IMG/VR virus record: IMGVR_UViG_3300045988_154391
From: a virus
Lineage: Duplodnaviria > Heunggongvirae > Uroviricota > Caudoviricetes
Reading direction: 5' to 3' (one strand)
DNA: 64,000 nucleotides
The notes below the pieces were generated by a model. That model searched no databases. It saw only the letters and a program-made list of their open reading frames with translations, and had not been told where the DNA came from. The position numbers and the translations under genes are program-made. This document shows positions 29,392 through 31,464 of this stretch, in pieces. Every line of letters starts with the position of its first letter. The first letter of the stretch is position 1.

Positions 29392-29467
29392 TGGTGGCCC
29401 CTACCGGACTTGAACCGGTGACCGTGCGATTATGAGTCGCCAGCTCTAACCACTGAGCTAAAGGGCC
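29392..29467 (-). tRNA. tRNA-Ile (anticodon CAU, ileX-like; formally Met/Ile ambiguous)
   Basis: 76 nt folded by hand: 7-bp acceptor stem, anticodon loop CTCATAA, T-loop GGTTCAAGTCC, encoded CCA. Confidence 0.8.
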
Positions 29468-29494
29468 GGATTACTGCCAATTTTGCTTACGCTT

Positions 29495-30322
29495 TTATTT
29501 CACCGGAACAAACGGAACAGCGGTATTACTGGTCATATACTGCGGTAATGTACCGTTCCATTTGTTGATCGCTTCCAACTCCATAACACCGGGGTTCTGG
29601 CGCAGAGCTTCACCACGTAAACGAATGGCATCAGCTTCGGCCTGGGCTTTTGTGCGAATAGCATCAGCCTGTCCGGCAGCTTCCGCGCGCAGCATGTTGG
29701 CCTCTGCTTCACGTTGTTTGACCTCTTGCTCGCGTTGCAGGGTTTTTTGGTTTGCCGTGACTTTGGCGTTAATACTGTCAATAACTGTTGGCGGGTATTC
29801 TGGCTTACCTACATAAGAGAGGCTCATCACCTGAATGCCGATTGGCGTCATTTCTTCCTGAATGTCTTTAAGGGCTGCATCAAGCAATTCGGATTTGCCA
29901 CCGTCGATAAATTTGTCGGTTGTCATTTTGCTGGCTAACCGGTTCAGAGCATCTGCAACCTTCTGGCGTAGATCGGTATCAGTAATATCATCTACACCTT
30001 TGCGATAGGTCTGAAATACCGTTGTGACTTTTGCTGGATCAACCTTGTAGGCTACGCCGATGTGGTAACCAATGGTTGTTCCGTCGCTCATCTGGAAGCT
30101 GAACGGCTCATCGTATGTCTTCATTTGCTTAAAGGTCGGGAAGATATAAACTTCAGTATTCAAGCCTGTCCAGTAGCGACCAACGCCAACTACTTCACCG
30201 ATACCTTTATCATCCCCCAGCTTATTTACTTTGATCCCTACGTTACCTGGCTCTACCCGATCGCATCCGGTCAGACATAAAGAACCCAAAATAATCGCTG
30301 CACTAATCAACGTTTTTTTCAT
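29495..30322 (-). CDS. SPFH/band-7 (HflC-like) lipoprotein
   Basis: 275 aa; signal peptide with lipobox LTGC; SPFH-like core; A/Q/E-rich coiled-coil tail. Confidence 0.6.
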   Translation of the reverse strand: MKKTLISAAIILGSLCLTGCDRVEPGNVGIKVNKLGDDKGIGEVVGVGRYWTGLNTEVYIFPTFKQMKTYDEPFSFQMSDGTTIGYHIGVAYKVDPAKVTTVFQTYRKGVDDITDTDLRQKVADALNRLASKMTTDKFIDGGKSELLDAALKDIQEEMTPIGIQVMSLSYVGKPEYPPTVIDSINAKVTANQKTLQREQEVKQREAEANMLRAEAAGQADAIRTKAQAEADAIRLRGEALRQNPGVMELEAINKWNGTLPQYMTSNTAVPFVPVK

Positions 30323-30539
30323 TAATTAATTTCCTGGTTTTTTCACGAAAAAAGACTACTGCGAAAGCTGGGTAAATGAGCGCGAGAAGGACTCCCAACA
30401 ATACAAGTATTGTGCTGTTAGATGAGATCATATTTGGCAAAAGCCAAACATACAGAACCAGTGACACAATCAAACAGAGGACGGCATAAATATATAACCG
30501 CACCCATAGCGTTCGACATTTGTTCGGATTGTTCTGCAT
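30303..30539 (-). CDS. Small membrane protein
   Basis: 78 aa with two hydrophobic segments. Confidence 0.4.
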   Translation of the reverse strand: MQNNPNKCRTLWVRLYIYAVLCLIVSLVLYVWLLPNMISSNSTILVLLGVLLALIYPAFAVVFFREKTRKLINEKNVD

Positions 30540-30802
30540 CCTCTCACTCCATTATTTAACGAATAAAAAAGCTGCGGTGCCGGGTGCCTCCCGGTGTCCT
30601 TTGGCTGGTTATCCACCGTGGACGGGGAAACAAGGAGAAATGAATGGACTGATATAACCATTTCCCCGCGTGCGCTTAGCCGCATTCACCGCAATGGTAA
30701 GAGCACTTGGCTGGCTGGGCGGCGATGACGCCTGTACGCATTTGTTGATCCGGTTCTGCTTCCGGCATTCGCTTAATTAGCCAAATACTCTTAACGTTGC
30801 GC

Positions 30803-30889
30803 TGGCGGAGAGTAATGGAATCGAACCATCATCGCTTGCGCTATGGGACGGTTTTCAAGACCGCTTGAGCACCATGCTCCCTACTCTCC
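30803..30889 (-). tRNA. Class II tRNA-Ser-like gene (anticodon UGA)
   Basis: 87 nt: acceptor GGAGAGT/ACTCTCC, anticodon arm GCGGT-CTTGAAA-ACCGT, long variable arm, T-loop GGTTCGATTCC, discriminator G, CCA; D-arm is atypical. Confidence 0.5.
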
Positions 30890-31224
30890 AGTGATTGTGG
30901 TGGTCGGTGCTGAACTCCGACACAGGGTTGTAGCAAGCCCCGCAAAGCGCGCACTACTGTAGTTGCGGCACATCAGCCTGTGCATTCACCACAATGTTGA
31001 GAACACTGGTTGTCACGCGGCAACGCAACATTTATTCATAGATTGGGATATGACCCCGTTACGCCAATGTTCTCAACGTTGTAGTGCCGGTTACGGTTCC
31101 GGCCAGGCCTCTTCCTCAACGGGGTGTTCTCCATACGGACTACCGTTTATTGGTCGTTCCTGCGGTTTATGTTGTGAAGCCAGATGCTTATCTTCTGGTT
31201 GCTTCTAAGAGCTGCACTTCATCA

Positions 31225-31305
31225 CAACGGTAAGGGTACTTCGTAGGGATTCGAACCCTCTGCCAAGCTCGGCGATCTCCGACGTCGCAAAATACCCTTA
31301 CCTGT
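31225..31305 (-). other. tRNA-like fragment with a perfect T-arm but no canonical acceptor stem
   Basis: GGGTTCGAATCCC flanked by a 10-bp inverted repeat (GGTAAGGGTA / TACCCTTACC); no cloverleaf could be built. Confidence 0.25.
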
Positions 31306-31310
31306 TGTGC

Positions 31311-31386
31311 TGGTGCCGATTAACGGACTCGAACCGCTGACATCCTGCTTACAAGGCAGGCGCTCTACCAACTGAGCTAAACCGGC
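31311..31386 (-). tRNA. tRNA-Thr (anticodon UGU)
   Basis: 76 nt: acceptor GCCGGTT/AATCGGC, anticodon loop CTTGTAA, T-loop GGTTCGAGTCC, CCA. Confidence 0.8.
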
Positions 31387-31388
31387 AT

Positions 31389-31464
31389 TGGCGATGGTGG
31401 ATGGATTTGAACCATCGACCCGTTGATTAACAGTCAACCGCTCTAACCGCTGAGCTACACCATC
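31389..31464 (-). tRNA. tRNA-Asn (anticodon GUU)
   Basis: 76 nt: acceptor GATGGTG/CACCATC, anticodon loop CTGTTAA, T-loop GGTTCAAATCC, CCA; 2 nt from tRNA-Thr. Confidence 0.8.

Follow-up and report, generated by a model that had tools for sequence, protein, structure and literature searches.

Does the tRNA cluster of this P1-like genome hold a genuine fourth tRNA, and if so, what kind of tRNA is it and what might it do for the phage? The analysis covered a stretch of 64,000 nucleotides from a member of the Caudoviricetes (IMG/VR record IMGVR_UViG_3300045988_154391), hereafter the window. ARAGORN called four tRNAs in it, for Ser, Asn, Thr and a CAU anticodon, all on the minus strand, against three at this locus in P1. 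The serine call coincided exactly with the 87-nt class II tRNA-Ser(UGA)-like sequence that a preliminary description, made from the letters alone, had placed at 30803–30889 as an addition to the three tRNAs of P1. The details of that proposal were also recovered, including the perfect acceptor stem (7 bp, GGAGAGU/ACUCUCC), the anticodon loop CUUGAAA and the encoded CCA. The description had named tRNA-prediction software as the check to be made; ARAGORN raised no pseudogene flag, and neither did RefSeq/PGAP, which annotates the identical sequence as tRNA-Ser. The fourth tRNA is thus a genuine phage-borne tRNA-Ser(UGA) gene, correctly observed and already known. Our literature search on P1-like phages with a tRNA-Ser returned nothing relevant. 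A set of four tRNAs (Asn, Thr, Ser, Met) has been published for the D6-like plasmid pYU39_89 (PMC6799933). Earlier descriptions exist of the gene and of its structural class, and no new biological question is opened. The main outcome is a correction of annotation: at least two classes of P1-like phage-plasmids can be told apart by whether they have three tRNAs or four. The features of the locus are listed in the table.

Features of the ban operon region, in order from the operator to the distal gene (positions refer to the window)
Feature	Position	Strand	Evidence
Bivalent C1 operator Oban (Op72ab), overlapping the ban-operon promoter	32122-32149	.	Pattern search; P1 and P7 annotations
Terminator-like hairpin followed by a T-run, between Oban and tRNA-Asn	31937-31959	-	At the position of the P1 'dicF-like region'
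tRNA-Asn(GUU)	31389-31464	-	ARAGORN; Rfam tRNA model, 74.5 bits
tRNA-Thr(UGU)	31311-31386	-	ARAGORN; Rfam tRNA model, 72.9 bits
Highly structured spacer RNA, repeated long-hairpin units with common arm motifs	30540-31310	-	Fold, repeats D1 and I1, mosaic identity
Cassette, 185 bp: tRNA-Ser and 3' flank	30711-30895	-	Pairwise BLAST breakpoints, alignment, plasmid counts
tRNA-Ser(UGA), 87 nt, non-canonical (8/4-type)	30803-30889	-	ARAGORN, sequence and alignment, covariation, Rfam
Long-hairpin unit directly 3' of tRNA-Ser	30690-30802	-	Folds, five-sequence alignment
Two ORFs: 78-aa membrane protein and 275-aa SPFH-type lipoprotein	29495-30539	-	ORFs; RCS47 and Ro157c2YLVW annotations
tRNA, CAU anticodon	29392-29467	-	ARAGORN label Met; P1 annotation tRNA-Ile2 (ileX-like)
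ban (DnaB-like helicase), distal gene of the operon	27742-29112	-	ORF, annotations

We consider it roughly 75% probable that this is an 8/4-type phage tRNA-Ser(UGA) that lies in the C1-repressed ban operon on an exchangeable cassette, is charged by the host seryl-tRNA synthetase (SerRS) and supplements the decoding of UCA. The class II serine features are all present: the anticodon UGA sits in a 7-nt loop with U33, the discriminator is G73, and the variable arm, AUAGC-GCAA-GCGAU, forms a 5-bp stem with a GCAA loop and, in the window copy, one A·G mismatch. The core of the molecule departs from a canonical tRNA-Ser, which has U8, a D-stem of 3-4 bp with a large D-loop and a score to match the general tRNA model. 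Here, position 8 is A and the D-arm is compact, GAGC(A)-UGG-(U)GCUC. An Rfam scan of the gene found no family at the gathering score, the general tRNA model RF00005 included. The host gene serT, whose sequence was confirmed in every one of 5426 E. coli genomes, shares with the phage gene the anticodon loop, G73, CCA, the pairs G1:C72, G2:C71 and A3:U70 and a class II variable arm. In the host tRNA, U occupies position 8, a large D-loop follows a D-stem of 3 bp, and the acceptor/T branch is 7/5, compared with A8, a D-stem of 4-5 bp with a loop of 3-5 nt and an 8/4 branch in the phage tRNA.

The window copy alone fits both a 7/5 pairing, with G49·U65, and an 8/4 pairing, with A8:U65. A single-sequence minimum free energy fold of the gene gave no cloverleaf; such folds are common for tRNAs, and we took the structure from comparative evidence. 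Positions 8 and 65 are paired in all 32 homologs (20 AU, 7 GC, 4 GU and 1 CG) with eight double-sided changes, while 49 and 65 are unpaired in 6 of the 32 and never change on both sides. An unguided RNAalifold consensus of 39 sequences likewise had an acceptor stem of 8 bp and a T-stem of 4 bp. Compensatory changes were seen in the acceptor, D and variable stems when the window was aligned with pJN2-26, rV5 and Sugarland. In the rV5 and Sugarland homologs, the D-arm consists of a 5-bp stem capped by an AUGG tetraloop. One base has been lost from the copies in the window, P7 and D6, whose arm can be drawn with a 5-bp stem and a loop of 3 nt or with a 4-bp stem and a loop of 5 nt; the P1-like D-loop is one nucleotide shorter than that of rV5. 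Small irregularities distinguish the copies: the variable-arm stem contains A·G in the window and U·G at this place in P7 and D6, and the D-stem of D6 has a C·U mismatch.

Covariation over these 32-39 phage homologs supports placing the predicted architecture in the (8/4) tRNA-Ser class of Mukai et al. (NAR 2017, PMC5389517), who reported such tRNAs in phages, showed that 8/4 tRNAs insert serine in E. coli and grouped those with serine anticodons with the ordinary serine isoacceptors. The window gene shares with this class, and with allo-tRNAs, a 12-bp acceptor/T branch divided as 8+4, the long variable arm, the G73 discriminator, an anticodon for serine and its presence in phages. In the class the D-arm is Sec-like, with a long stem and a tetraloop, and the compact D-arm of the window gene may be of this kind. 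The gene differs in its anticodon stem, which is 5 bp (GCGGU/ACCGU) and cannot be lengthened by A25 and C43; the longer-than-canonical stem of 8/4 and allo-tRNAs is absent from the window tRNA-Ser. The preliminary description did not recognize the non-canonical, 8/4 type of the gene.

The setting of the gene is that of the P1 ban operon. The tRNAs lie between Oban and ban, on the ban strand and in synteny with P1 trnA, trnT and trnI; operon, operator, gene order and orientation are alike, and the three common tRNAs lie in stretches that align with an overall identity of 96-97%. Searching for the C1 operator consensus, ATTGCTCTAATAAATTT, revealed a perfect match on the minus strand at 32133-32149, overlapped by a half-site with two mismatches at 32122-32138 on the plus strand. 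With up to two mismatches allowed, the window contains eight sites, where 0.02 would be expected. The perfect operator-like site that had been noticed upstream of the cluster is this one, and it occupies the annotated Oban/Op72ab position of P1. According to the P7 annotation, Oban controls the tRNAs. Since tRNA-Ser sits in the leader of this C1-repressed operon together with tRNA-Asn, tRNA-Thr and tRNA-Ile2(CAU), it would be transcribed once C1 repression lifts, and it would then be excised from the polycistronic RNA. A terminator-like hairpin stands between the ban promoter and the tRNAs, and therefore read-through or another promoter would be needed. A simple sigma-70 scan of 29000-32300 found no promoter, but it also missed the annotated Pban and is thus uninformative on internal promoters.

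Charging by the host enzyme is suggested by the identity elements. SerRS recognizes a long variable arm and the G73 discriminator (PMC5389517), and the phage tRNA would present both, together with G1:C72, G2:C71 and A3:U70. Once charged, it would add capacity for decoding UCA. Codon usage fits such supplementation: UCA makes up 19.9% of the serine codons in the window ORFs versus 10.5% in an E. coli K-12 sample, or 12.9 versus 5.2 per 1000 codons (odds ratio 2.1, p = 3e-8). The codons of the other three tRNAs, ACA, AUA and AAU, are likewise enriched in the window. The suggestion that an extra serine tRNA would affect codon supply is therefore consistent with the roughly twofold use of UCA among serine codons. 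Any benefit would probably be modest, because P1 and RCS47 do well without the gene.

A different function would be counter-defence, in which the non-canonical body escapes or replaces a host tRNA-Ser hit by a tRNA-targeting nuclease of a toxin-antitoxin or anti-phage system, with codon supply secondary. Anticodon nucleases can be counteracted by phage tRNAs, which restore translation, and tRNA-Ser is a cleavage target of some VapC toxins. Such a role would suit a tRNA whose body is far from host serT, although its anticodon loop is identical, and which recurs in unrelated virulent phages. The anticodon loop is, however, the usual nuclease target and is the same as the host's, E. coli is not known to have a nuclease specific for tRNA-Ser(UGA), and codon usage is enough to account for retention of the gene. 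We consider this reading unlikely.

The distribution of the gene is broad. It is found in P7 and D6, giving four tRNAs, while P1 and RCS47 have three only. Overall, approximately 156 P1-like plasmids in PLSDB carry it, as do 330 of 5426 complete E. coli genomes (~6%), where 333 of 335 places are on plasmids. A copy about 88% identical occurs in the Klebsiella phage-plasmid pJN2-26, and the gene is also present in phage-plasmids of roughly 110 kb. Unrelated virulent phages, the rV5-like and Sugarland-like phages among them, have this non-canonical tRNA as well. The copies of D6 (NC_050154.1, 7145-7231) and P7 are closest in form, both 87 nt, 97.7-98.9% identical and located between tRNA-Thr and the tci/ban genes. 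They differ from the window at one variable-arm position, where the window has A for U, and downstream, where the window has the SPFH-lipoprotein module and they have tciA/tciB. The homolog of rV5-like phages (Vequintavirinae) is ~89% identical and 91 nt long, its D-loop having one base more and its variable arm 3 nt more. It comes from a virulent myovirus and lies in a different operon context, an Arg-Tyr-Ser-(odd tRNA)-Thr-Met-Pro cluster. The comparison of tRNA content across P1-like genomes that had been proposed thus bears out only part of the claim of a lineage-specific acquisition. P1 indeed lacks the gene, but the gene is neither new nor narrowly distributed. Given this wide spread, loss or replacement in the branch of P1 and RCS47 appears as plausible as gain.

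Within the P1-like genomes, tRNA-Ser is one allele of an exchangeable 185-bp cassette. In its place, P1, RCS47 and Ro157c2YLVW have an unrelated segment of 145-151 bp, which in P1 measures 151 bp and forms part of the annotated 'upl' ORF. The cassette is common to rV5-like virulent phages; it is 82% identical overall to their tRNA-Ser locus and shares ~80 nt of 3' flank with it. In PLSDB, ~382 plasmids carry the P1-type alternative and ~156 the Ser cassette. The tRNA operon as a whole is a mosaic, whose blocks are either ~99-100% or ~72% identical between relatives. Its spacer is highly structured (fold z-score -5.9). We considered purifying selection on spacer unit A, which is 100% identical between P1 and D6, and dropped it, as the block-wise identity profile is that of a recombinational mosaic. 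The two ORFs downstream of the spacer sit where P1 has tciABC, between tRNA-Ser and tRNA(CAU), and have homologs in Stx, P88 and phiP27 phages.

The hairpin unit directly 3' of tRNA-Ser has a core that is conserved in rV5-like phages; the unit could serve in processing or be what is left of a tRNA. Covariation in this flank amounts to one compensatory pair, with two lineages only. The tRNA and its hairpin could together form a self-contained RNA cassette, exchanged between temperate P1-like and virulent rV5-like phages through the spacer hairpin arms. In that case, selection would have favored the 8/4 body for its resistance to host activities directed at canonical tRNA-Ser (nucleases, or systems of modification and regulation, for example), and the cassette would be a counter-defence module and not a simple codon supplement. 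We regard this version as improbable. In a related version, the hairpin units that now bear the protein annotations Upl and Plp would be functional stable RNAs or processing signals.

Alternatively, the gene could be a neutral hitchhiker or decaying relic that makes no measurable contribution and was spread by recombination at the conserved hairpin arms. The mosaic operon, the excess of P1-type cassettes over Ser cassettes, the mismatches in the variable arm of the window copy and the D-stem of D6, and tRNA-like remnants nearby, such as unit A, would all agree with this. Nevertheless, every stem is preserved, as are the T-loop, the anticodon loop, G73 and CCA, the compensatory substitutions in different lineages indicate that the structure is under purifying selection, the gene is kept in divergent phage-plasmids as well as virulent phages, and neither ARAGORN nor PGAP flags a pseudogene. 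We hold this explanation to be quite improbable. A pseudogene as the main reading was itself rejected on the compensatory stem changes and the intact identity elements. Finally, a selenocysteine-type or recoding (suppressor) tRNA, suggested by the top Rfam match (tRNA-Sec, RF01852, 42.9 bits), the Sec-like D-arm and a possible 8-bp acceptor stem, has practically no chance of being correct. The anticodon is in effect enough to refute it, since UGA decodes the serine codon UCA, and decoding of the stop codon UGA would take the anticodon UCA. Also against it are a score under the 47-bit gathering threshold and a branch of 12 bp versus the 13 bp (8/5) of bacterial tRNA-Sec.

The putatively codon-supplementing (8/4) tRNA-Ser provides a coliphage example of a shape that standard tRNA covariance models score poorly. 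Since ~6% of complete E. coli genomes carry the gene on phage-plasmids, it is also a convenient natural 8/4 tRNA for work in E. coli on SerRS recognition, on compatibility with EF-Tu and the ribosome, and as an orthogonal scaffold. Existing records treat it unevenly. In P7 the copy is present and unannotated, and in D6 it is entered on the opposite strand with the depositors' remark 'AA not called by tRNAscan-SE', that is, with no isotype.

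ARAGORN, run on the whole window, called four tRNA genes at exactly the coordinates that the preliminary description had read from the sequence by eye, including a fourth gene, tRNA-Ser(UGA) (GGAGAGUAGGGAGCAUGGUGCUCAAGCGGUCUUGAAAACCGUCCCAUAGCGCAAGCGAUGAUGGUUCGAUUCCAUUACUCUCCGCCA). Its acceptor stem (GGAGAGU/ACUCUCC) contains no mismatch, and the CUUGAAA loop and encoded CCA are present, as had been described. By the same program P1 and RCS47 carry three tRNAs each, so the window does exceed P1, while P7 and D6 carry four each (Asn, Thr, Ser, CAU). Ro157c2YLVW also has four, with tRNA-Tyr in place of Ser; this tRNA-Tyr(GUA) is inserted between tRNA-Asn and tRNA-Thr (L004, our Ro157c2YLVW locus, 3680-3766).

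The tRNA region matches that of the P1-like phage RCS47 at 99% identity and, in shared blocks, that of P1 at 96-98%. In transcription order, it comprises dmt, Oban, a leader, tRNA-Asn, tRNA-Thr, a spacer of ~420 nt, tRNA-Ser, a further spacer, two protein genes, tRNA(CAU) and ban. The operator-like site reported upstream of the cluster is an exact match to the C1 operator consensus (ATTGCTCTAATAAATTT) at 32133-32149 (-), overlapped by a second half-site at 32122-32138 (+). At this position P1 has its annotated bivalent operator Oban/Op72ab, the controller of the ban operon, and the P7 annotation has Oban controlling the tRNAs too. Allowing up to two mismatches, the window holds 8 sites against 0.02 expected; the six additional matches are what would be expected of a P1-like immunity regulon. 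Given the strong terminator-like hairpin in the leader, the tRNAs would need either read-through beyond a short leader sRNA or a promoter of their own. Database labels for the 275-aa lipoprotein vary between "serine protease" and "lipoprotein", and its gene is ~86% identical to genes of Stx-converting phages, P88 and phiP27.

Features of the ban tRNA operon and further C1 operator matches in the window
Feature	Position	Strand	Source or remark
tRNA(CAU)	29392-29467	-	ARAGORN, whole window
78-aa membrane protein and 275-aa SPFH-type lipoprotein	29495-30539	-	at the place of P1 tciABC; same in RCS47
Spacer unit B	30690-30802	-	fold
tRNA-Ser(UGA)	30803-30889	-	ARAGORN, whole window
Spacer unit D	30893-30985	-	fold
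Spacer unit C	30986-31090	-	fold
Spacer unit A, T-arm-like hairpin GAGGGUUCGAAUCCCUAC	31218-31309	-	fold/repeats
tRNA-Thr(UGU)	31311-31386	-	ARAGORN, whole window
tRNA-Asn(GUU)	31389-31464	-	ARAGORN, whole window
Terminator-like hairpin GCCCATCTTCGGGTGGGC, then T7	31937-31959	-	strong; between ban promoter/operator and tRNA-Asn; P1 "dicF-like region"
Further C1 operator matches, 1-2 mismatches	2374-2390, 15818-15834, 21583-21599, 35979-35995, 51430-51446, 53102-53118		consensus search of window

The most interesting aspect of tRNA-Ser is its apparent membership of the non-canonical 8/4 class (8-bp acceptor stem, 4-bp T-stem), which has been described in phages before. The gene has A8 instead of U8 and a compact D-arm, GAGC(A)-UGG-(U)GCUC, unlike the host tRNA-Ser(UGA), serT, which has a 3-bp D-stem and a large loop (the serT sequence compared is present in 5426 of 5426 E. 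coli genomes). At gathering thresholds, no Rfam family matched it, the general tRNA model included, and the best sub-threshold match was tRNA-Sec (42.9 bits against a threshold of 47). The D6 depositors remarked of the gene "AA not called by tRNAscan-SE". The tRNA-Sec-like "allo-tRNAs" include the (8/4) tRNA-Ser of bacteriophages, which combines an 8-bp acceptor and a 4-bp T-stem with a D-arm of Sec-like form, a long variable arm and G73 (Mukai et al., PMC5389517).

Scanning IMG/VR with a degenerate pattern yielded 68 unique ARAGORN-called tRNA-Ser(UGA) sequences. Every non-U8 member can form the 8:65 pair that marks the 8/4 fold. Across 32 unique acceptor/T constructs, this pair is AU in 20, GC in 7, GU in 4 and CG in one, never unpaired, with 8 double-sided changes, whereas 49:65, the mark of the 7/5 alternative, is unpaired in 6 of the 32 and shows no double-sided change. 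Among the 23 U8 members, 15 have no possible 8:65 pair, as canonical tRNAs should. Unguided RNAalifold prediction on 39 full-length sequences returned an 8-bp acceptor and a 4-bp T-stem, with compensatory change in 18 of 21 predicted pairs. Because 8:65 covaries, 49:65 does not, and the consensus fold is 8/4, comparative sequence analysis fits the family to this type. The window copy by itself is compatible with both A8:U65 and G49·U65, and its assignment therefore rests on homology. It departs partly from the class in its anticodon stem, which has 5 bp, and in its D-loop, which in the P1-like copies falls one base short of the D-arm tetraloop of the rV5 homolog.

The gene is real, and its conservation supports function as a tRNA. 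The T-loop (UUCGAUU), the anticodon loop (that of serT), G73, CCA, G1:C72, G2:C71 and A3:U70 are all intact. Lineages differ by compensatory changes at acceptor positions 5 and 6 and their partners; in the D-stem, A:U is replaced by G:C, and Sugarland shows strand swaps. The variable arm carries GCAA, GAAA or GAUGA loops on covarying stems. Other tRNAs of the 8/4 type were shown to insert serine in E. coli (Mukai et al., PMC5389517). Some features call for caution: the terminator-like hairpin separates Pban from the tRNAs, the 5-bp variable-arm stem has A·G in the window copy against U·G in P7 and D6, and the D6 copy has a C·U mismatch within the D-stem. Sequencing error was ruled out as the source of A·G by identical copies in IMG/VR, PLSDB and RefSeq.

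The gene lies in a discrete 185-bp cassette (30711-30895 (-)), whose flanks align on both sides with P1, RCS47 and Ro157c2YLVW; these carry an unrelated segment of 145-151 bp at that position. The cassette edges are arms of the type found in the spacer hairpin units. Against D6 and P7, operon blocks are either ~99-100% or ~72% identical, and this two-level pattern points to cassette exchange by recombination in the tRNA operon. The virulent rV5-like phages (Vequintavirinae) have a locus 82% identical to the cassette (the tRNA and ~80 nt of 3' flank); their tRNA-Ser measures 91 nt and sits within an Arg-Tyr-Ser-…-Thr-Met-Pro cluster.

The tRNA-Ser gene was already known. It is annotated as tRNA-Ser in D6, a D6-like Salmonella plasmid has four tRNAs for Asn, Thr, Ser and Met (PMC6799933), and RefSeq labels the E. 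coli copies tRNA-Ser, one 100%-identical copy included. It occurs in 330 of 5426 complete E. coli genomes, almost always on plasmids (333 of 335 places). In PLSDB, ~156 plasmids contain at least 80% of the cassette versus ~382 with the P1-type alternative, and a further group of ~110-kb plasmids has tRNA-Ser at 90-93% identity. The gene is an extra relative to P1, though not clearly the lineage-specific acquisition that had been proposed: D6, P7, phage Cyrano and the Klebsiella phage-plasmid pJN2-26 have it too, which makes its replacement in the P1/RCS47 branch equally plausible. The P7 record (L005, NC_050152.1, 1501-1587) leaves tRNA-Ser without annotation; the D6 record (L003, NC_050154.1, 1593-1668, 2654-3359) places its three tRNAs on the strand opposite the ARAGORN calls and annotates no tRNA(CAU).

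Classically, phage tRNAs are seen as supplementing codons rare in the host. Comparing 65 long window ORFs (17,771 codons) with 42 annotated K-12 genes (14,748 codons), UCA stood at 12.9 versus 5.2 per 1000 codons and at 19.9% versus 10.5% of serine codons (odds ratio 2.1, p = 3e-8). Codons of the other three tRNAs were likewise enriched (ACA, 14.0 versus 5.4; AUA, 10.2 versus 2.4; AAU, 22.8 versus 13.8 per 1000), a pattern that fits the classical view. Codon supply, the role originally suggested, is thus plausible: once C1 repression lifts, the operon would be switched on and its tRNAs would top up host-rare codons. The mosaic nature of the ban tRNA operon makes it possible that tRNA-Ser is a neutral hitchhiker, although its conserved structure argues otherwise. 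A counter-defence role, with the non-canonical body protecting the tRNA from nucleases that target tRNAs, is improbable given an anticodon loop identical to the host's.

The 771-nt spacer between the 78-aa ORF and tRNA-Thr (30540-31310 (-)) folds with z = -5.9 relative to shuffled controls, into a series of long-stem units with common arm motifs (repeat family D1, inverted repeat I1). These units may serve as RNase processing sites, or they may be stable RNAs or the remains of tRNAs. P1, D6 and SJ46 share the tRNA-like long hairpin of unit A (31215-31312 (-)) at 100% identity, and an 85%-identical copy occurs in Enterobacter phage BUCT554, an unrelated phage of 40 kb. Like the tRNA-Tyr of Ro157c2YLVW, an additional segment of ~170 nt in RCS47 (L001, 3403-3575) is a variable cassette of this operon; a 23-nt arm motif (window 31218-31240) is duplicated so as to flank it. 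The P1-annotated ORFs upl and plp run antisense to the units (window 30963-31340 (+); P1-type cassette, L002 2561-3130), with plp extending into tRNA-Thr. Frameshifts interrupt the Plp frame in RCS47, Ro157c2YLVW and P7; Upl occurs only in the P1-type cassette. Both are probably spurious ORFs rather than genes. Directly upstream of the 78-aa ORF lies an element (30573-30693 (-)) resembling STnc100 (RF02076), a prophage sRNA family (bioRxiv 10.64898/2026.05.13.724894), at a sub-threshold 37.8 bits (threshold, 47), with a closing stem UGCGGUG…CACCGCA followed by a U-run. The same element precedes tciA in P1.

Just before tRNA-Thr, rV5-like phages carry another tRNA-like gene of 99 nt, which ARAGORN reports as "tRNA-???" (rV5_ev168, L006 1690-1788; two further rV5-like loci, L009 790-888 and L010 789-887). 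Its 6-bp D-stem carries a 4-nt loop, its anticodon-type loop reads UUUUUAA, and its variable arm is long. Annotated as tRNA-Lys in Mangalyan, this gene may be another non-canonical, allo-like tRNA.
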